From NCBI GenBank assembly GCA_027310825.1, contig DAIDAC010000001.1, positions 108,695-132,694 on the forward strand: DNA of 24,000 nucleotides, given 5' to 3'. The notes beneath the pieces were generated by a model, which did not search any database, was not told the DNA's origin, and saw nothing but the letters and a program-made list of their open reading frames with translations. Each line of letters opens with the position of its first letter. Position 1 is the first letter of the stretch. The DNA comes from Candidatus Micrarchaeaceae archaeon (GTDB lineage: Archaea > Micrarchaeota > Micrarchaeia > Micrarchaeales > Micrarchaeaceae). Shown here in pieces: positions 15,292-24,000 of the stretch. A program made the translations under genes and the position numbers.

Positions 15292-16356
15292 CTACTGCGG
15301 AGGTTGTGGTGTTTGCGTGGAAGGAGGAGTTTGTGGATTGTCTCTGCCTTTCTTTATTGCGTAGTTCTCCATCTTTATTGCACGGCCCCCAAGTGCTGCA
15401 AATCTCTTGTTCGCATCGTTGTAGTTTATCTTTGTTATGTGTTCGCTTCTCTTTGTTATTATGTTGAACGGCGGGATCTTGTAAGCAATCCTGTCGTCCA
15501 TCAGTATTCGTTCGTGCTGCTCGACTGCGTCTTTGTCGTCCATGACCCGTATCTCTACGCCGATTGATGGTCCAAGCTGTGCCCTGAAGTCTGAAACGCT
15601 CTCGTTGAACTTCGAGTCAAGCATTTCCTTGCTCGTCAGCACAGATATCTTTGTGAAGTTGCTAACGCTGTTCTCTATTAATCTGTGAAGGTTGGCAAGC
15701 GCAACAGAGTTGAAGTGTTTGTCCACTATTTTAAGATGGCCGGACATGTTTGAGAAAAGCTGGTCTTGAAGATTGATCACGTTTGAGAATGGTGTGTCTG
15801 GGTTTATCGCGATGGTGTGCTTCATCTGCGGCTGCCTTCCTTCGGAAGGCTTCCTTATGATATACTGCATGTATGCATCCCCGGCAAGCGATATGGCTAT
15901 GCCAGCATATGGGAAGAACAGGTAGTTGCTGTCCAGATTCGTGTAGAAATCCGAGAGCAGAACGAACAGAAGAAGCAAGAACATGACCACCAATGCCGCG
16001 TGCAGCAGCGAGTATTTCTTTATTGTCTCGCTTGTTTTCTCTGTCCTTCTGATGAAGAACATGAATGAAACTATCATGGCCCCAAACGCGACCAGGAACA
16101 TGGCGTAGCTTTCCAATATGCCCTGATGTATCAGGCCGATGTTCAGCGCTGCCTGCTGGACAAGCGGCGCAAGAGGGACGTTCCCTGTGTAAGAGCTCTG
16201 TATTATCGCCCCTATCCCTATCCCATACAGTATGGAAAGTGTCTTGACTATGTATATCGAGCTGACCACAAGAATGAATGCTCCGAGGTTGAGCGCAGCC
16301 ATGAACATTGCGTTCTTGCTCTTGTCCTCGTCAAACCTGTATTGCGCCATAAGCAA
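15292..16356 (-). CDS. Membrane protein (4-5 N-terminal TM helices) with a ~160-aa C-terminal soluble domain, possibly PLD-fold/MIT_C-like, and a Pro/Thr/Gln-rich tail
   Basis: 354 aa, with a TATA-like AGATATATTAAGG ~20 nt upstream. The hydrophobic segments lie within aa ~17-165. The C-terminal domain reads GHLKIVDKHFNSVALANLHRLIE...ISVLTSKE...GVEIRVMDDKDAVEQHERILMDDRIAYKIPPFNII and ends PQTPPSTQTPQPPQ. It lies 11 nt upstream of sua5, so it is probably co-transcribed. Confidence 0.7.
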   Translation of the reverse strand: MLMAQYRFDEDKSKNAMFMAALNLGAFILVVSSIYIVKTLSILYGIGIGAIIQSSYTGNVPLAPLVQQAALNIGLIHQGILESYAMFLVAFGAMIVSFMFFIRRTEKTSETIKKYSLLHAALVVMFLLLLFVLLSDFYTNLDSNYLFFPYAGIAISLAGDAYMQYIIRKPSEGRQPQMKHTIAINPDTPFSNVINLQDQLFSNMSGHLKIVDKHFNSVALANLHRLIENSVSNFTKISVLTSKEMLDSKFNESVSDFRAQLGPSIGVEIRVMDDKDAVEQHERILMDDRIAYKIPPFNIITKRSEHITKINYNDANKRFAALGGRAIKMENYAIKKGRDNPQTPPSTQTPQPPQ

Positions 16357-16429
16357 AACCTTAATATATCTAGTTCGCCGTAGCTATTAATTGATGTGGT
16401 AAGGCTAAAAACCATACCTGCAAAAACCG

Positions 16430-16957
16430 CTATCTTTTCTTTGATATTGCGGCTCCGGCTTTTAGAATACCGAGAACAATAGCGTAACTCGATGGAGGGT
16501 TTCCTTTCACTTTCACATCAACTGGAACAATCTCGTCAACCCTGCCTGATCTGAATACATAATCGCTGTCCTTGAATAAACCTCCGGTGCATGCCCCGTC
16601 TCCTACTGCCACCACCGCCTTTGGCCTCGGCATTGCAGCATATGTCTTCTCAAGTGCAGTCTTCATGTTTATTGAAACCGGGCCTGACGCAATCAACACG
16701 TCGGCATGCCGTGGAGATGCGACAAAGTGTATTCCGAATCGTTCGCAGTCAACCTGCGGGGCATTCGCAAGCCCTTCCTCTATCTCGACATCGTTTGATG
16801 AGCCGCAGTCTATCATTCTTACTGCTATTGACCTCGAAAACAGCGAGCGCGGCCGCTTTTTCAGAAATGCTGCAAGCTCACGGATCTGCTGCGACTCGGA
16901 ATCGACAGAGATTATGTCGGATTTCGGCTTTTCGAAAAATGCAAGGAATTCGCGCAT
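16430..16957 (-). CDS. NuoB/HycG/HyfI-like small subunit of a group 4 hydrogenase-related complex, with degenerate [4Fe-4S] ligands
   Basis: 175 aa. The core ERFGIHFVASPRHADVLIASGPVS...RPKAVVAVGDGACTGGLF...IVPVDVKVKGNPP aligns with HycG/NuoB as I recall them (ERFGI..V.SPRHADVLL.TG.V...PK..I..G.C..SGG.F...VPVDVYIPGCPP). The Cys positions are discussed in findings. Confidence 0.85.
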   Translation of the reverse strand: MREFLAFFEKPKSDIISVDSESQQIRELAAFLKKRPRSLFSRSIAVRMIDCGSSNDVEIEEGLANAPQVDCERFGIHFVASPRHADVLIASGPVSINMKTALEKTYAAMPRPKAVVAVGDGACTGGLFKDSDYVFRSGRVDEIVPVDVKVKGNPPSSYAIVLGILKAGAAISKKR

Positions 16958-16986
16958 GTTTACACCAGCTACATTAACTACATTAA

Positions 16987-18552
16987 TTACAGATCTGCAC
17001 CTGAATACGATAGATTGAAACTCTTGTTTATCAGTGGGAAGTCCGGAACTATATTTGTCATTACCGCCTTCTCAAGGGCTCTCCAGTTCCTGAACGATGA
17101 AGTCCTGATCAAAAGCACGTCGATTGTGCCGTTTTTCCCAGTCCTTAGGAAGAAGGTCGACGAGCCTCGCGCTGCCTCACAGATTCCGACGCCTATCAAT
17201 CCGCTTTTTGCATTTCGCAATTTGTTGTCGATGTTTGCAGAGATCGGGCCTTTCACCCTTTTCGCGATTTCCGCGTCTATGAGCCTGACCGATTCGCGGA
17301 TCTCGTTTATTTTGACCAGTAGACGCGACAGCACATCGCCGTTCTCTGCCATGTGTTCGATGACCTTATTCGTTTTGTATGCACCGTACGGCAGATGCTT
17401 TCTTGCGTCGCAGCTGACTCCTGCGGCGCGCGCTGCTGGGCCAACCAGCGATAGCTCCTTTGCTGCCTCTTTGCTTACCCTTCCGGCGAGGAAGACACGG
17501 TCCAGGAATGTAGACGATGTAAGCGCAAGGTCCTCTATTCTGGACAGCTCCTCTGATATCGATCTCATGTCGTTTACAAGCGCCGCAATCTCTTCGGCAG
17601 AGGCTGTTTCTTCTGCCCCTCCTATCGAAATGATGTTGCGCAGGAATCTATTGCTGAATACGCCTTCATTTAATCTCATTACTTCCTCTCTCAAAGCTGC
17701 AAACCTGGCGGACACTGCGTAGAAGCCGACATCCATCGCCATGCCGCCTATATCGGCCAGATGGCTGTAGATTCTTTCGAGCTCTAGCAGCAAAAGCCTC
17801 ACCGACTCTGCCCTCTTCGGCACAGCGATGCCGAGAGCCATCTCCACAGCCTGCGCATACGCGACAGAGTTCGCCACAGATTCGTCTCCGGATATCTGCT
17901 CGATGATCGGGAATGCCTTGTCGAGCGGCTTCCCAACCAGAATCTTTTCTATCCCTTTGTGCAGGTATGACAATCGCACCTCCATCTTGTTGATCTCTTC
18001 ACCGGTAACATGGAACCTGAAGTGGCCAGGTTCTATTATGCCTGCGTGCACAGGGCCTACCGGAATCTCGAACTCGCCTTCCTTCTCCGTCCCCCTGAAG
18101 GCGTAATCCGTTTTGTAGAGCTCCTTTTGTTTTTTGGGCAGCGATGCCGATACCTTCCCCTTCAGAAGATTGTAGCTTTCCGGATGTATGACGATGGGCC
18201 TTGTATCCGAAAGCCCGAAGAACCTGATTCCTGACGTCTCAGCCATTTTCCTTTCGTCCCACATCGCAGCCGGTATTTTTCCCGATATGGAGTAGAACTG
18301 CTTTGCATGCGACCACACTATTGCGATATTTTCCAGTTTTGGAACCCGAAAAAGGTATGCGACGGTCCAGTCTTTTCCATTGGAGCTCGGATATGCGAAT
18401 GCGGAATCGAACGCTCCTCCTTTGCCGATGCAGGCATCGCACGCATCTACGATAGCGATAGGATCAGTCTCGATCCAGATCAGCGCACCGTCAGCCGATA
18501 TGCCGGTTGAATTTTTCTTGATCGATTTGATGAAATCATTTGCTCCATTCAT
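16987..18552 (-). CDS. Fused NuoC-like / NuoD-HycE-HyfG-like large subunit of a group 4 hydrogenase-related complex, lacking the NiFe-binding cysteines
   Basis: 521 aa. The N-terminal ~140 aa are NuoC/30-kDa-like (DWTVAYLFR...WDERKMAETSGIRFFG). They are followed by the hallmark FEIPVGPVHAGIIEPGHFRFHVTGEEI...RLSYLHKGIEK of energy-converting hydrogenase large subunits. The start abuts the upstream stop (TAAATG). Confidence 0.9.
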   Translation of the reverse strand: MNGANDFIKSIKKNSTGISADGALIWIETDPIAIVDACDACIGKGGAFDSAFAYPSSNGKDWTVAYLFRVPKLENIAIVWSHAKQFYSISGKIPAAMWDERKMAETSGIRFFGLSDTRPIVIHPESYNLLKGKVSASLPKKQKELYKTDYAFRGTEKEGEFEIPVGPVHAGIIEPGHFRFHVTGEEINKMEVRLSYLHKGIEKILVGKPLDKAFPIIEQISGDESVANSVAYAQAVEMALGIAVPKRAESVRLLLLELERIYSHLADIGGMAMDVGFYAVSARFAALREEVMRLNEGVFSNRFLRNIISIGGAEETASAEEIAALVNDMRSISEELSRIEDLALTSSTFLDRVFLAGRVSKEAAKELSLVGPAARAAGVSCDARKHLPYGAYKTNKVIEHMAENGDVLSRLLVKINEIRESVRLIDAEIAKRVKGPISANIDNKLRNAKSGLIGVGICEAARGSSTFFLRTGKNGTIDVLLIRTSSFRNWRALEKAVMTNIVPDFPLINKSFNLSYSGADL

Positions 18553-20019
18553 TTAACCACCGAGCAGCACAGACGCTGCAGAACTTATCGCCCCGAACAA
18601 CAGCTGCGGCGCGATTATCCCCAGGAAGACTGCAAGCGCGAACAGGGCCCATACGCAAATCAATGTTACTCTGTTCGGCGAATATCTGTGCAGTGCTCCA
18701 GCCACCTTTCCATAAACTATCTGCGAAGATTTTAGCAGCAGAGTACCAAATGATATCGTGGCGAAGACGACCAGGAATGCCAATACGATGTAGTGCTGTC
18801 CAGCGAGCGCAGCAGCTATCAGTATTATTTCTGCTATGAATGTTCCGAACGGAAATCCGCCAGCAACTCCCATATTCGCGAGTATGAACGGCAAACCAAT
18901 CGACGGAATTGTCTGTGCAACTCCGCCCATGTATGAAATCTCCTTTGCGCCATATCCGTGATTTATAATGCCCCACATGAAAAATGCAAGAGGCTTGACC
19001 AATGAGTGGGATACGATGAGGAAGATCGCCGCGAAAACGCCGAGCGGACCGCCAACTCCGAGAGCGATTGCGATTATACCCATATTCTCGACGCTGGAAT
19101 ATGCCAGAAGACGCTTGTAGTTTTCCTGGTAGTAAAGCCTCAGCGATGCAAGTGCAAGGGAGAGAAGTCCGAATGCGATCAATAGCGTAGATATGAACGA
19201 ACCTATAGCAGGAACCTGCACCCCGACAGGGTACAATCTCAATATCCCATAAAGGGCGGTGTTGAGCAGCACTCCGGAAAGCAGGGCGCTGATAGGTGTC
19301 GGCGCCTGGCTGTGCGCATCTGGAAGCCATATGTGCAACGGCGCAAGGCCCATCTTTGTCCCGTAACCGACGATAACAAATGCTAACGCGATCTTGAGGA
19401 ACAGCACATTGATCTTCGATGCGTTTGCTATCACGTCCCACCATGCAAAGCTGGGCGCAACGCCGGCCTGCTGCATTCCGTATTCCAGTATTAGCAGTCC
19501 GACCAGCGCAAGGGTGATTCCGAGAGAGCACACTATGAAATATTTCCATGCAGCCTCGACGGACTCTTTCTTGTTGTAGAAGCTTATCAAGAATACAGAA
19601 GTAAGAGTCGTCGTCTCCATGAACACCCATATCATGAGCAGGTTGGATGCCATCGACACGAAAAGAACAGACGAGAGAAAGAGCAGCAGGAACGCGTTGT
19701 ATTTGCTGATCCTGTTGCGTTCGAACGTTCCTTCTGCAGCCTCTTCACGCATGTATCCACGAGAGTAGATTGCGGCGAAGAGCGCAACCACTATTGCAAT
19801 CGCCACGAACACCACGCTGAGCGAGTCGAGGTATAGATATCCGAAAAGCCCGGCGACAGGTGTCGTCGAAAGGTTCACCGGTGATACGGTCAATATGAGC
19901 GAGATTAGCGATGCCGCGATGCCAAGTATCGCAACAGTCTCGGCTGTATCGGGCCGCTTCTTCAGCAGTAGGCAGATGACCGAAGCGATCAATGGAAACA
20001 GGATAATCAATTCGATCAT
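18553..20019 (-). CDS. HyfF/NuoN/NuoM-like antiporter-type membrane subunit
   Basis: 488 aa and polytopic. It carries the Proton_antipo_M signature LAPLHIWLPDAHSQAPTPISALLSGVLLNTALYGILR and LLAYSSVENMGII. Confidence 0.88.
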   Translation of the reverse strand: MIELIILFPLIASVICLLLKKRPDTAETVAILGIAASLISLILTVSPVNLSTTPVAGLFGYLYLDSLSVVFVAIAIVVALFAAIYSRGYMREEAAEGTFERNRISKYNAFLLLFLSSVLFVSMASNLLMIWVFMETTTLTSVFLISFYNKKESVEAAWKYFIVCSLGITLALVGLLILEYGMQQAGVAPSFAWWDVIANASKINVLFLKIALAFVIVGYGTKMGLAPLHIWLPDAHSQAPTPISALLSGVLLNTALYGILRLYPVGVQVPAIGSFISTLLIAFGLLSLALASLRLYYQENYKRLLAYSSVENMGIIAIALGVGGPLGVFAAIFLIVSHSLVKPLAFFMWGIINHGYGAKEISYMGGVAQTIPSIGLPFILANMGVAGGFPFGTFIAEIILIAAALAGQHYIVLAFLVVFATISFGTLLLKSSQIVYGKVAGALHRYSPNRVTLICVWALFALAVFLGIIAPQLLFGAISSAASVLLGG

Positions 20020-20023
20020 GGTT

Positions 20024-21631
20024 TCACCTTTCTTCGGAAAGCTGGTTCATGCGCACCGTGTCAAGGCTCGCTATCACATTGTTTATTTTGAAGAACAGCA
20101 GCAGCGCCACTGCTACCAGTATTATGACGTCGAAGATCGAGACTATTTCTTCTATTATTGGGATTTGGATTGACAGCGCGATCGGAAACAGCACAAGCCC
20201 GTTCTCGAGGACCAGGAAGCCCATAAGCTGGAGCATCACATGGGTCTTTGTCGCCATTATCAGGCCGCCAATAAGTATTATCGAGAGCGCTATCGGGAAA
20301 AGAGGGTTGCCTATGCCAAGCACGTATGATACCGAATACGACAGGAATATCAGCAGTGTTGCAAGCACCAAACTACCGACAGTGCCCACGTGCGACCTAA
20401 GGAAAAGAGGATCGGCATCTAGAACAACCTTAGAATTGCCTGCAAGGCGCCTGAATGCTGCGTATATGAGATAGGGCAGAACCATTATCTTGAATATTAT
20501 TGTTGAGACAAGCTGCAGATAAGTTCCGGCGCCGCCGTCGCTGCTGAGCACAAACAGCAATATCAGCGCAAGAAGCATGCTCTGCAATATGAATATCTCA
20601 AGCCTCCTCATGAACGTCGCGCTGAACAGGAAGTAGATCGCCGATACTAGCATTGCGACTGAAAGAACAGCTACAGGACCTATCACCTGCGGACCGTTGA
20701 AAAATCTCACTATGACGGCGAGCAGAGACAGCACAAGTGAAAATGCGAGCAGCTTTGTCACCTTGAAGAGCCTGACCTTTGGAGATATGCTTTCTATTAT
20801 CGCAGTGGAAATCGCCAGCAGCAATATTCCGGCGAATGCCATCAAACCTGAAAACAGCACATTAGACGATGAGACAAATGCATTGATCGGCAAAAACAGG
20901 ACTACGAAAAGTCCGAAGAATACGACCATCTTCGACGCATTCGCCCATTCTATGAGCGCCAACATTGGCCCGGAATACTCAAGCACCATAGCTTCGTGCA
21001 CCATGGTTAGCTCCAGATGTGTTGAAGGGTTATCGAAGGGCAGTCTGCCTGTCTCCGCAAGTATTACTATGAAGAGCGCGCCCGCAGTCAGCCAGAACGC
21101 CGGAGAGGTTGCAGTCAACTGCCAATTGAGAGATGTGGTGGATGAAACTGATGCTATGCTGCCAAATCCATTGGAGAACGAGAAAAAGATTATTATAGCA
21201 AATATCACCGGTTCAAGGAGTGCGGAGTAGAATGCTTCCCTGCTGGCGCCGATTCCGCCGAACGCGCTCCCGGCATCGAGCGCTGCAAGATACATCATGA
21301 ATCTGCCTATTGCAAAAATGTAGACGAACAGTATCAGGTCGATGGCAACGAATGTCGACTGGAATATTATTGGGAGCACGGCAGCCGCTATTATTATAGA
21401 AGCGAACAGCACAGCAGGCGCTGCCATGAATATCCAGGAGGTGGTTGAACTGACTACAGTGCCTTTCATGAACAGTTTTGCGATGTCGAAGTACGGTTGT
21501 AGTATCGGCGCGCCTCTCCTGCTTTGGGAGCGTGCCTTGATTTTGTTCATCAATCCGATAATGAATGGCGATACCGCAAAGATCAGCAACGCCTGGATTA
21601 TTGAATAGATAATACCAATTTCAGAAAACAT
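20024..21631 (-). CDS. Fusion of a HyfC/HycD/NuoH-like subunit (N-terminal ~310 aa) with a HyfE-like subunit (C-terminal ~220 aa)
   Basis: 535 aa. The N-terminal part is SPFIIGLMNKIKARSQSRRGAPILQPYFDIAKLFMKG ... LDAGSAFGGIGASREA ... LPFDNPSTHLELTMVHEAMVLEYSG, matching the NuoH/HycD pattern (R.GP...Q...D..KL..K; PFD..EAE.EL..G...EYSG). The C-terminal part is KIMVLPYLIYAAFRRL ... LQLMGFLVLENGLVLFPIAL ... IFDVIILVAVALLLFFKI, matching E. coli HyfE as I recall it (KVLLVPLIMTYAARNI; IFGYCLMENGSHLVLALL). Confidence 0.85.
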   Translation of the reverse strand: MFSEIGIIYSIIQALLIFAVSPFIIGLMNKIKARSQSRRGAPILQPYFDIAKLFMKGTVVSSTTSWIFMAAPAVLFASIIIAAAVLPIIFQSTFVAIDLILFVYIFAIGRFMMYLAALDAGSAFGGIGASREAFYSALLEPVIFAIIIFFSFSNGFGSIASVSSTTSLNWQLTATSPAFWLTAGALFIVILAETGRLPFDNPSTHLELTMVHEAMVLEYSGPMLALIEWANASKMVVFFGLFVVLFLPINAFVSSSNVLFSGLMAFAGILLLAISTAIIESISPKVRLFKVTKLLAFSLVLSLLAVIVRFFNGPQVIGPVAVLSVAMLVSAIYFLFSATFMRRLEIFILQSMLLALILLFVLSSDGGAGTYLQLVSTIIFKIMVLPYLIYAAFRRLAGNSKVVLDADPLFLRSHVGTVGSLVLATLLIFLSYSVSYVLGIGNPLFPIALSIILIGGLIMATKTHVMLQLMGFLVLENGLVLFPIALSIQIPIIEEIVSIFDVIILVAVALLLFFKINNVIASLDTVRMNQLSEER

Positions 21632-21643
21632 ATCCCCACCAAA

Positions 21644-23629
21644 CTAACCCAACACCGCAAACGCCACTACAACCGACAGCGTAAGCATGAGATAAAACAG
21701 ATAGTCGACAAGCTTGCCTGTCTGGAGCTTCCTTGACCAAGGCGCGACGAATAAGAAGGCTTTTCTTATCGGCTCGTAGATAATCTTTTCGAACAGCATA
21801 TGACCGTAGGCATCGGCCCGGCCAAGTGGATTTGCAAGTATATTGAAGCCGCGAAGTATCGGCATCGTAAAGCCCTTTGCAGAATATTGCATGTGGCCAT
21901 TTATCCCGGGCAGGCCGCACGCCCATGTTGGTCCGACCTGCTCGACAACGTGTTTTCTTTTACCGAGATATTTGATATACAACAACGTGAATGCGACTAT
22001 GGCCAGAAGGGCCACGAATATCTCAAGCATTGGGAGAGTTGACACAGTCGCGACGATGGTTGGCGCGCCGCCCATGTTCAACTGCACCAGCACAGGCGAT
22101 ATCATCCTTGCGACGACACCCGGGAAAATTCCTGCGCATATGCATGCAGCGGCGAGGATGCCCATGCCAAAGAGCATCGCCTTTGAAGGATCGCGCGCTT
22201 TCTGCACGTGTGTGCTTCGCGGGGTTCCAAGGAATGTTAGGCCGAACGCCTTTGAAAACGCAGCCACGGCGAACGCGCTAGTCAACGCAAGCGCAAGGAT
22301 GGCAGCCCCCGACACAAATGATACAAGCTTGGTGCCGCCAACGCCGCCCAAGAGCGCCACGAAGGTAAGCCATTCACTGACGAATCCGTTGAGTGGAGGA
22401 AGCGCAGCGATCGATGCGGCGCCGACAAGGAAGAGCAGCGCGGTGATCGGCATGTATTTGATTATGCCTCCGAGTTCATCGATGTTGCGCGTGTGCGCCG
22501 AAGAGGCAACCGCTCCTGCTCCGGAGAATAGAAGGCTCTTGAAAAGCGCGTGATTCATCGTATGATAAAGCGCGGCGAAGAGAGCGATAGCAGCGAGAAG
22601 TGGAAGGTTTATCGTCGTAAATATCGAAGCTGCGCCAAGGCCAAGGAATATTATCCCTATGTTTTCTATGCTGTGATAAGCGAGGAGCGTCTTCAGGTCG
22701 TGCTCCATCAGCGAATAAAGGACACCGAGGACAGACGAGACCATTCCGAGCGCGAGAAGGACAAGGCCCCACCAAAGAGGTATGGTGCTGCCCAAAAGGA
22801 ATCCGAACACAACGCGTACAATCCCATAGATTGCGGTCTTCAGCATTATTCCAGACATGAGCGCAGATATGTTGCTAGGCGCCTGTGGGTGCGCGACCGG
22901 AAGCCAGATGTGGAACGGCATGACTCCGGATTTTATTCCAAAGCTTATCAATGCAAAAATGAATATCACAGCGGCAACGGCTGGCGCGTATTGCGCGCTT
23001 GAAAACGCGCTGAAATCCGCAGAGAAGTTTGCACCAGACGCGAGCGCGATGAACATTACTATAAGGCACAATGTTCCGAAATGCGTCATTAGCAGATACG
23101 AAAGCCCTGCGCTCTTGGTGGAATCTTCCTTATGTTCGAATGAAACAAGATAGTAAGATGAGAGGGCCATCAGTTCCCAGAAGACGATGAATGCAATCGC
23201 ATTCTGCGCAGTAACGACCATCGCGATCGAAAGCAAAAAGAGGTTGAACAGGAAGATGAAGCGCGGTATGCTGTATCCTCTGCGCGCATATTCGCCGACG
23301 TAGCCGAACGAGTAAATTGATACCGACAAAGTCACGAAGCCGATAAATGCTATGAAGAAGCCGGAGAGGGCATCGACGCCGAATCCGATCGTTCCGAGAA
23401 TCGGCACCACCGCAATCACCATCTTTGAGATTTGGAGGCCGAGAAGTGCGCTTATTCCGGCGGCCATTAGAGAGAGGCTAGCCAGTGACGCAGACAGAAG
23501 CCCTACGAGTTTGGAATATTTCCAGTTCTTGACCAGGAAAGCGGATAGCATTCCGAATGCATAAAACAACACGGAGAGCCACAAAAGCCCGGCTGTGCTT
23601 CCAAGAATGCTTAGTAGATATTGTTGCAT
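21644..23629 (-). CDS. HyfB/HycC/NuoL-like antiporter-type membrane subunit
   Basis: 661 aa and polytopic. It has the signature MPFHIWLPVAHPQAPSNISALMSGIMLKTAIYGIVR and LLAYHSIENIGIIFLGLG. Its size is close to E. coli HyfB. It is the first gene of the cluster, with GGGAGAT SD-like sequence adjacent to the ATG and AT-rich TATA-like sequences 45-70 nt upstream. Confidence 0.9.
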   Translation of the reverse strand: MQQYLLSILGSTAGLLWLSVLFYAFGMLSAFLVKNWKYSKLVGLLSASLASLSLMAAGISALLGLQISKMVIAVVPILGTIGFGVDALSGFFIAFIGFVTLSVSIYSFGYVGEYARRGYSIPRFIFLFNLFLLSIAMVVTAQNAIAFIVFWELMALSSYYLVSFEHKEDSTKSAGLSYLLMTHFGTLCLIVMFIALASGANFSADFSAFSSAQYAPAVAAVIFIFALISFGIKSGVMPFHIWLPVAHPQAPSNISALMSGIMLKTAIYGIVRVVFGFLLGSTIPLWWGLVLLALGMVSSVLGVLYSLMEHDLKTLLAYHSIENIGIIFLGLGAASIFTTINLPLLAAIALFAALYHTMNHALFKSLLFSGAGAVASSAHTRNIDELGGIIKYMPITALLFLVGAASIAALPPLNGFVSEWLTFVALLGGVGGTKLVSFVSGAAILALALTSAFAVAAFSKAFGLTFLGTPRSTHVQKARDPSKAMLFGMGILAAACICAGIFPGVVARMISPVLVQLNMGGAPTIVATVSTLPMLEIFVALLAIVAFTLLYIKYLGKRKHVVEQVGPTWACGLPGINGHMQYSAKGFTMPILRGFNILANPLGRADAYGHMLFEKIIYEPIRKAFLFVAPWSRKLQTGKLVDYLFYLMLTLSVVVAFAVLG

Positions 23630-23705
23630 TATCTCCCGACGCGATGTGCTTGCGGCTGAAAAATAGTCGCCTTTTATTATGAACTAGAAATATATTTAAA
23701 GGCAG

Positions 23706-24000
23706 TCACTTCTTGTCCAGATTCTTCATCGTTTCCTTCAGCACATACTTGAACCATGCTGCGTATTTGCCAGGGCTTCTTTTCATGTCTTTCTCGATCT
23801 CTTCGAGGTTAGCCCATTTCCAGCCCTGCACCTCGTCAGGATTTGGCTTAGGCGCCCCTTCATAAGTTCCAAAGAAAAGATGGTCGTATTCGTTTTCAGT
23901 CAGATTGTTGCCGACGTCTGTTCTGTAGACGAACTGAGTCACTTCATGCATGGGGCAATCGAATCCCATCTCTTCCATTAGTCTTCTGTGCACCGCCTGG
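23706..24000 (-). CDS. idi: Isopentenyl-diphosphate delta-isomerase, type 1 (Nudix fold), C-terminal part; the gene continues beyond the window end
   Basis: The reading frame is open to nt 24000. The visible part is (A)VHRRLMEEMGFDC...FVYRTDVGNNLTENEYDHLFFGTYEGAPKPNPDEVQGWKWANLEEIEKDMKRSPGKYAAWF. This fits the type 1 IDI pattern (A..RRL.EELG...F.Y.A......ENE..HV..G......NP.EV....W......P..FTPWF). Confidence 0.78.
   Translation of the reverse strand, partial: QAVHRRLMEEMGFDCPMHEVTQFVYRTDVGNNLTENEYDHLFFGTYEGAPKPNPDEVQGWKWANLEEIEKDMKRSPGKYAAWFKYVLKETMKNLDKK

Follow-up and report, generated by a model that had tools for sequence, protein, structure and literature searches.

The energy-converting, or Ech-hydrogenase-related, (Ehr) complexes comprise EhrA-D, L and S of Geobacter sulfurreducens, and have also been reported in Margulisbacteria, CPR, comammox Nitrospira and AOA. 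Marreiros et al. 2013 is reportedly the paper that defined them, and Coppi 2005 is said to be the other founding paper. In complex I, the membrane-bound hydrogenases and their relatives, ion pumping is thought to be driven by redox chemistry at the interface between the NuoB-like and the NuoD-like subunits. In Mrp, MrpA/D-type subunits with a Glu in TM5 and Lys in TM7 and TM12 move ions without redox chemistry.

Published work defines Ehr through its large subunit and calls its function unknown (PMC6349859, PMC7304191, PMC10284858, PMC10432482). The small subunits are described as NuoB or as NuoB-NuoI fusions (PMC6349859 Supplementary Note 4), and from this description they are read as iron-sulfur carriers. 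Published ideas on what the complex does assume an electron-donating partner, e.g. formate dehydrogenase (PMC6349859), and the Geobacter subunits have been seen by proteomics (PMC7894505). For the Hyq clusters of alphaproteobacterial diazotrophs, a large subunit without canonical NiFe ligands is described (PMC4758237). No mention of a cluster-free Ehr small subunit was found in the literature searched; Coppi 2005 or Marreiros 2013 may mention one.

Here we analyze an Ehr-type operon of a Candidatus Micrarchaeaceae archaeon, contained in a window of 24,000 nucleotides (the whole stretch of DNA that was analysed). Its small subunit is a recurrent cluster-free variant within the known Ehr family.

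Organization of the operon

Five tightly packed, co-directional genes make up the operon, a self-contained unit (16430-23629, reverse strand), in the order HyfB-like, HyfC::HyfE fusion, HyfF-like, NuoCD/HycE-like large subunit and small subunit, the small-subunit gene being the last (Table 1). As in Ehr, the large subunit is homologous to that of group-4 [NiFe] hydrogenases and to NuoD, lacks the NiFe-binding Cys and shows the motifs SGD[ESTN] and NKSxNxSYSG. It is clustered, also as in Ehr, with NuoB-like, NuoH-like and HyfE-like subunits and with two antiporter-like subunits of the Mrp/NuoL type. The departure from the usual Ehr state lies in the proximal [4Fe-4S] cluster of the small subunit, a trait outside the published definition: the four Cys are present at 59 of 86 Ehr loci, whereas the Micrarchaeota protein presents S, V, G and N, i.e. 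0/4 ligands, and has no ferredoxin module. The five-gene operon contains no gene for a HycF/NuoI-type (ferredoxin-type) subunit.

An identical five-gene operon, HyfC::HyfE fusion included, is present in another Micrarchaeota genome (locus L022). When the window and this locus are compared, no neighbour gene, redox genes included, is conserved beside the operon. At L022:1-894 there is an eRF1 N-terminal domain, followed by an intein-splicing-domain match below the Pfam cut-off.

Table 1. Genes of the operon and cluster-ligand positions of the small subunit, in window coordinates.
Feature	Position	Strand	Basis
HyfB-like antiporter-type subunit, 661 aa, first gene	21644..23629	-	NCBIfam hydrogenase-4 subunit B 4.9e-175, below model cut-off
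NuoH/HyfC-like::HyfE-like fusion, 535 aa	20024..21631	-	Pfam NADHdh residues 12-308; NCBIfam hydrogenase-4 membrane subunit 320-531
HyfF-like antiporter-type subunit, 488 aa	18553..20019	-	Pfam Proton_antipo_M; NCBIfam hydrogenase-4 subunit F 2e-106, below model cut-off
EhrL-type large subunit, NuoC-NuoD/HycE-like fusion, 521 aa	16987..18552	-	Pfam Complex1_49kDa, NiFeSe_Hases N-terminal part, Complex1_30kDa
EhrS-type small subunit, NuoB/HycG/MbhJ fold, 175 aa	16430..16957	-	PF01058 and MbhJ/HycG matches; AF2 model
Former CxxC, now S54-N55-D56-V57; ligands 1 and 2 replaced by Ser (codon 16796-16798) and Val (codon 16787-16789)	16787..16798	-	Alignment with MbhJ GSCNGCDIE and HycG GGCNGCEIE
Gly121, true third-ligand column	16595..16597	-	Ligand Cys of MbhJ, HycG and PSST aligns there
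Cys123, non-ligand, 2 residues downstream of the ligand column	16589..16591	-	T in MbhJ, N in HycG and PSST
Asn153, replaces the fourth ligand (GCPP to GNPP)	16499..16501	-	Alignment to solved relatives

Fold and cluster ligands of the small subunit

The small subunit matches Pfam Oxidored_q6 (PF01058) with E = 1.9e-21 and 76.6 bits, above the gathering score of 27, and this score together with a predicted flavodoxin-like NuoB fold places it in the Oxidored_q6 fold family. Its best sequence matches in the PDB are MbhJ of the P. furiosus membrane-bound hydrogenase (6cfw_J, E = 1e-22) and E. coli HycG (7z0s_G, E = 1.4e-22). The AlphaFold2 (AF2) model, obtained from an input of 75 aligned sequences, has a mean pLDDT of 91.3, and its top Foldseek match is again 6cfw_J, with an rmsd of 1.5 A over 135 columns and a TM-score of 0.87 (normalised to MbhJ). 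The protein is therefore predicted to keep an intact flavodoxin-like fold. It resembles MbhJ and HycG in this fold, in sequence (about 35-38% identity) and in its position between the large and the NuoH-like subunits, and resembles NuoB/PSST/Nqo6 of complex I in Pfam family, fold and overall complex architecture.

The difference from all these relatives is found in the cluster ligands. Ligand columns were defined by MbhJ, HycG and bovine PSST plus 115 relatives with Cys at columns 54, 57, 121 and 153, which are 33 of the 52 sequences of a first match set and, in an HMM-anchored alignment, 82 of 107 representatives (50% identity). The register of the third ligand was set by gapless HMMER alignments to MbhJ (6cfw_J), HycG (7z0s_G) and bovine PSST, whose motifs AIGAC-PTGG, YGAC-GNSGG and MGSC-ANGGG all bring the Cys opposite Gly121. 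Column 121 is a Cys in every four-Cys relative (33/33 and 82/82), and column 123 is variable among them, showing C, I, R, K, Q, S or A. Where the canonical motif reads G-x-C-x-x-x-G-G, the small subunit has G-A-C-T-G-G.

The four ligand positions consequently read S, V, G and N, with no canonical Cys. Accordingly, the protein has neither the four-Cys proximal cluster site of the group 4 [NiFe] hydrogenases (Hyc/Hyf/Mbh/Ech), formed in MbhJ and HycG by CxxC, GxC and GCPP, nor the N2 ligand set of complex I (CC/CxxC, GxC, GCPP). A preliminary description of this DNA had proposed that three of the four ligands were lost and that Cys123 was kept as the third. The substitutions to Ser54, Val57 and Asn153 stand; the count does not, since the third ligand aligns with Gly121 in the gapless HMMER alignments, which leaves Cys123 out of register and makes all four ligand positions substituted. 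Absence of the cluster, one of the two possibilities raised there, is thus supported more strongly than had been stated, no ligand being left.

The open reading frame, coordinates, strand and quoted peptides of the small subunit were all verified in the window, and Ser54, Val57, Asn153, Cys51, Cys71 and Cys123 are present as numbered. The segment MIDCGSSNDVEIEE covers nt 16775-16816, where 16775-16810 had first been given.

Partner subunits

Concerning the large subunit, alignment with HycE (7z0s_E) pairs RVCGIC with QISGDE and DPCYSC with NLSYSG, so that none of the four NiFe-ligand Cys, and neither the L1 nor the L2 CxxC motif of group 4 [NiFe] hydrogenases, is found. The quinone ligands of complex I, His38 and Tyr87 (T. 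thermophilus Nqo4 numbering), correspond to Ile173 and Gly222 in a gapless block with Nqo4 (2fug_4); both NuoD-type ligands are hence replaced. A further difference from complex I is the beta1-beta2 loop, which has the hydrogenase-type sequence EPGHFR. As read from these alignments, a ligand set for a redox cofactor is absent from the peripheral module. The complex also differs from MBH and FHL, in that the large subunit has no NiFe site, a HycF/MbhN ferredoxin subunit is missing from the operon, and HypD (PF01924), the sole Hyp family searched, was not found in the host genome (91.6% complete); judged on HypD alone, the Hyp maturation genes that go with group 4 hydrogenases are lacking.

Public annotations nevertheless name the orthologues of the small subunit 'formate hydrogenlyase', 'MbhJ' or 'Ni,Fe-hydrogenase III small subunit'. 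Such hydrogenase labels are misleading and would wrongly credit DPANN archaea with hydrogen metabolism.

In the membrane arm, the HyfB-like subunit keeps the TM5 Glu and the Lys of TM7, TM8 (MLKTAIYG) and TM12. The HyfF-like subunit keeps the TM5 Glu and the Lys of TM7 and TM12, and its TM8 Lys is replaced by Asn (LLNTALYG). Mrp shares the Glu of TM5 and the Lys of TM7 and TM12, and would also share the working mode that we propose below. The complex is not, however, a member of the Mrp family: Mrp has no NuoB, NuoD or NuoH homologues, whereas the operon encodes subunits like all three, it does not encode the seven-subunit MrpA-G set, and no Mrp-specific subunit beyond the MrpA/D type (Proton_antipo_M) is among the matches of the five operon proteins.

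Conservation across Micrarchaeota

The search for orthologues yielded 67-68 Micrarchaeota sequences with 53-74% identity which, where named, come from Micrarchaeota or Ca. Anstonella, and which form one clade with a support of 100 in a tree built without the ligand columns. None of the four ligand Cys occurs in any clade member (68/68). The clade has S or P at column 54, V at column 57 (67/68; I in one), G at column 121 (66/68; N in one) and N at column 153 (64/68; S in 2, D in 1). Column 123, outside the ligand set, is V or I in 12/68 orthologues. At least 95% conservation in the clade is reached by 59 positions, among them D56, V57, E58, E60, E61, D120, G121, A122, G152 and P154.

For the closest non-identical pair, dN/dS amounts to 0.13 in the small subunit and 0.155 in the large subunit. 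Across all pairs, synonymous sites are at saturation, with a median pS of about 0.8 versus a pN of about 0.29. The replacement pattern [S/P]-V-G-[N/S/D] is thus fixed across a Micrarchaeota-wide clade under purifying selection. The preliminary description had allowed that orthologues in related genomes might retain the canonical four cysteines, which would have pointed to recent decay in this genome only. Every orthologue lacks them, at a dN/dS of about 0.13, and the loss of the ligand Cys is old, conserved and selected.

Ehr-type loci in other bacteria and archaea

A scan of one genome per species gave 80 loci and, with those from the phylum search, a total of 86 Ehr-type loci, defined by a large subunit with none of the four Cys and with the motifs SGD[E/S/T/N] and NKSxNxSYSG. 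The large-subunit motifs of the window operon thus recur at 85 related loci, in bacteria as well as archaea. The ligand columns of the corresponding small subunits are CCCC in 59, without Cys in 25 and TCDD in 2. The CCCC loci include those of Verrucomicrobia, Burkholderiales, Bradyrhizobium and other Hyphomicrobiales, Nitrosopumilaceae and Bacillota. Among the Cys-free loci, Micrarchaeota read SVGN or PVGN; Methanosarcina, Methanoregula, Bathyarchaeia, Dehalococcoidales and Moduliflexus read DTDN or DPDN; Patescibacteria read TADD or TEGN, and Bdellovibrionales SEGD.

With four Cys at 59/86 and none at 25/86 loci, the small subunit studied here should therefore be considered a recurrent cluster-free variant of a known family, and the statement that loss of the cluster is unusual for the family holds only in part, as within the Ehr branch cluster-free small subunits recur (25/86 loci). 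A FastTree tree of the small subunits implies at least nine changes between 'four Cys' and 'none', a count that is only rough because the protein is short and the tree weak. A CxxCxxCxxxC motif lies in or near 18 of the 59 four-Cys loci versus 0 of the 27 loci without the full Cys set, where flanks of only 1.5 kb were available for 13 of the 27.

The Bradyrhizobium/Hyphomicrobiales loci read SGDS...NKSFNCSYSG and may be equated with Hyq, by taxa and by the description in the paper only; unlike in the window, the small subunits at these putative Hyq loci keep all four Cys. The Asp-Thr/Pro-Asp-Asn loci (L023, L028, L057, L086, L059, L026 and L029) represent a second cluster-free type, with a pattern unrelated to the Ser/Pro-Val-Gly-Asn of Micrarchaeota. 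A betaproteobacterial contig (L044:17-970 and L044:762-1820) carries two units about 6 kb apart, a group-4 hydrogenase pair and an Ehr-type pair. The former is a true group-4 pair, with ERICGVCS...ELCYSCTDR in the large subunit and a four-Cys small subunit.

Complex I of the host genome

The host genome encodes a separate, 11-subunit complex I with a canonical NuoB (GLACCAIE, GECATCGG, GCPP) and a NuoI with two 4Fe-4S motifs (CxxCxxCxxxCP), and it is from these two proteins that the organism can be said to make such clusters. The true NuoB and the small subunit of the window share 31% identity, and the latter is a specialised paralogue. The complex I genes lie outside the window and are split over C12:13228-16550 (nuoA-B-C and nuoD) and C12:57648-64595 (nuoH-I-J-K-L-M-N). 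Between nuoC and nuoD sits a gene for a 321-aa protein with an archaeal pilin-like class-III signal (QSAMEYLMTYGWAILII), which has a paralogue at C12:20179-21102.

Proposed function and alternative explanations

The best explanation for the operon, and in our judgement a probable one, combines a cluster-free adaptor small subunit with non-redox, gradient-driven ion translocation by the Ehr complex. The small subunit would carry no iron-sulfur cluster and would act as an adaptor, structural as well as coupling, keeping the large subunit attached to the NuoH-like membrane subunit; redox chemistry would be impossible for the entire complex, the antiporter-type machinery would most likely be a gradient-driven cation/proton translocator, and the cofactor-free cap may serve as a plug or gate. 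Since the ligand Cys were lost long ago and their absence is conserved and selected for, ion movement by the machine probably involves no electron transfer, and from residue conservation alone we infer redox-independent ion translocation to be the most likely mechanism. The Asn in place of the TM8 Lys of the HyfF-like subunit speaks against ion translocation.

What makes the case of more general relevance is that a whole peripheral module is kept under purifying selection without a redox-cofactor site, beside a normal complex I in the same genome, which raises the question of the role of the cap once the electrons are gone. If the cap gates or drives ion movement, the clade would offer a minimal five-protein system in which conformational coupling is separated from the redox step.

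By analogy with Mrp, a plain antiporter would not need so conserved a cofactor-free cap. Mrp antiporters work without NuoB/NuoD homologues, so the cap may have an unrecognised function, and the former cofactor pocket might have taken on a new role in binding or gating. The former NiFe/cluster pocket, which lies where the small and large subunits meet, could, in particular, be a non-redox binding or gating site for a cation, a proton or a small ligand, an alternative that we consider rather unlikely. As a detail of it, to which we give an equally small chance, the small subunit would contribute D56 and N153, and the large subunit D223 and E224, to the lining of the pocket, and binding or turnover there, in place of electron transfer, would drive or gate the membrane arm. 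It is consistent with such a site that conservation of the replacement residues reaches at least 95%, that other cluster-free lineages have different Asp/Glu/Asn-rich sets (DTDN, DADN, SEGD, TEGN, NEGD), that SGD[ESTN] and NKSxNxSYSG of the large subunit are conserved across bacteria and archaea, and that the cap is under purifying selection. It counts against it that no ligand or catalytic motif is identifiable, that three of the four Micrarchaeota replacements (S/P, V and G) are non-metal-binding residues, and that the operon has no conserved partner gene beside it; the carbonic-anhydrase family, for example, has no match beside the operon in the window or at L022, and a beta-carbonic anhydrase was not found in the genome. 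If this pocket reading were true, the complex I conformational engine would have been naturally uncoupled from redox chemistry.

That the complex is still redox-active, an unlinked partner or a bound organic cofactor (flavin or quinone) bypassing the missing cluster, seems quite unlikely. The published ideas on Ehr point in this direction with their electron-donating partner, e.g. formate dehydrogenase (PMC6349859), as does the proximal cluster kept by most Ehr loci (59/86). The Micrarchaeota clade, however, is without the proximal cluster, the ferredoxin module, the NiFe ligands and the quinone ligands (Ile173 and Gly222 instead), no redox gene is conserved beside the operon, and the genome already has a complete complex I.

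The preliminary description had also offered an unusual ligand set of Cys51, Cys71 and Cys123 plus a non-Cys residue. The small subunit has no Cys besides these three, two of which, Cys51 and Cys123, are 2-3 residues away from former ligand columns. All three occur together in 16 of 67 orthologues, two of the three in 31, one in 18 and none in 2, and in 13 clade members the whole protein has a single Cys; where sites 51, 71 and 123 are not Cys, they are Ala, Gly, Thr, Val, Ile or Leu. A cluster on these residues was rejected as a conserved feature: since 51/67 orthologues miss at least one Cys, the set is not a property of the family. For this species in particular, a non-canonical cluster or metal site on the three Cys and a non-Cys ligand is very improbable, considering in addition that E. 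coli HycG has an equivalent of Cys51 (VDCGGC) besides its CxxC pair, and that in the model Cys71 is predicted at the far end of helix 55-63 (by secondary structure).

Genomic slot of the operon

The operon was found in 17 of 401 genomes of the phylum, and in none of the 93 other genomes of the host's family, including the 11 others of its genus in that sample. This patchy distribution is what could be expected if the gene were what recent decay has left of a hydrogenase or complex-I subunit, a reading that is scarcely credible given the intact frame, an operon conserved in five families, dN/dS of 0.13-0.16, the 59 positions with at least 95% conservation and a fold predicted with high confidence.

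Four congeners (L108-L111) keep the genes that flank the operon, by comparison with window 15292-24000, without any Ehr genes: the gene of a 354-aa membrane protein and Sua5 are found on one side, and idi or an E1-alpha gene on the other, 1.1-1.7 kb away. In one congener (G402) the slot is filled by two unrelated genes, one CN-hydrolase-like (251 aa) and one of 273 aa on the opposite strand. Such flanks, kept without the operon, show it to be an accessory cassette whose slot is variable. Base composition was considered as a sign of recent transfer and set aside, for it does not separate gain from loss: the GC content is 0.505 in the operon versus 0.474 in the genome, and in GC3 the operon is similar to the complex I genes of the same genome.

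The 354-aa membrane protein (window 15292-16356) was also considered as a conserved Ehr partner and discarded, no homologue being found beside the L022 operon. It has no Pfam or NCBIfam match, and shows 47-50% identity to its counterparts beside Sua5 in the congeners.
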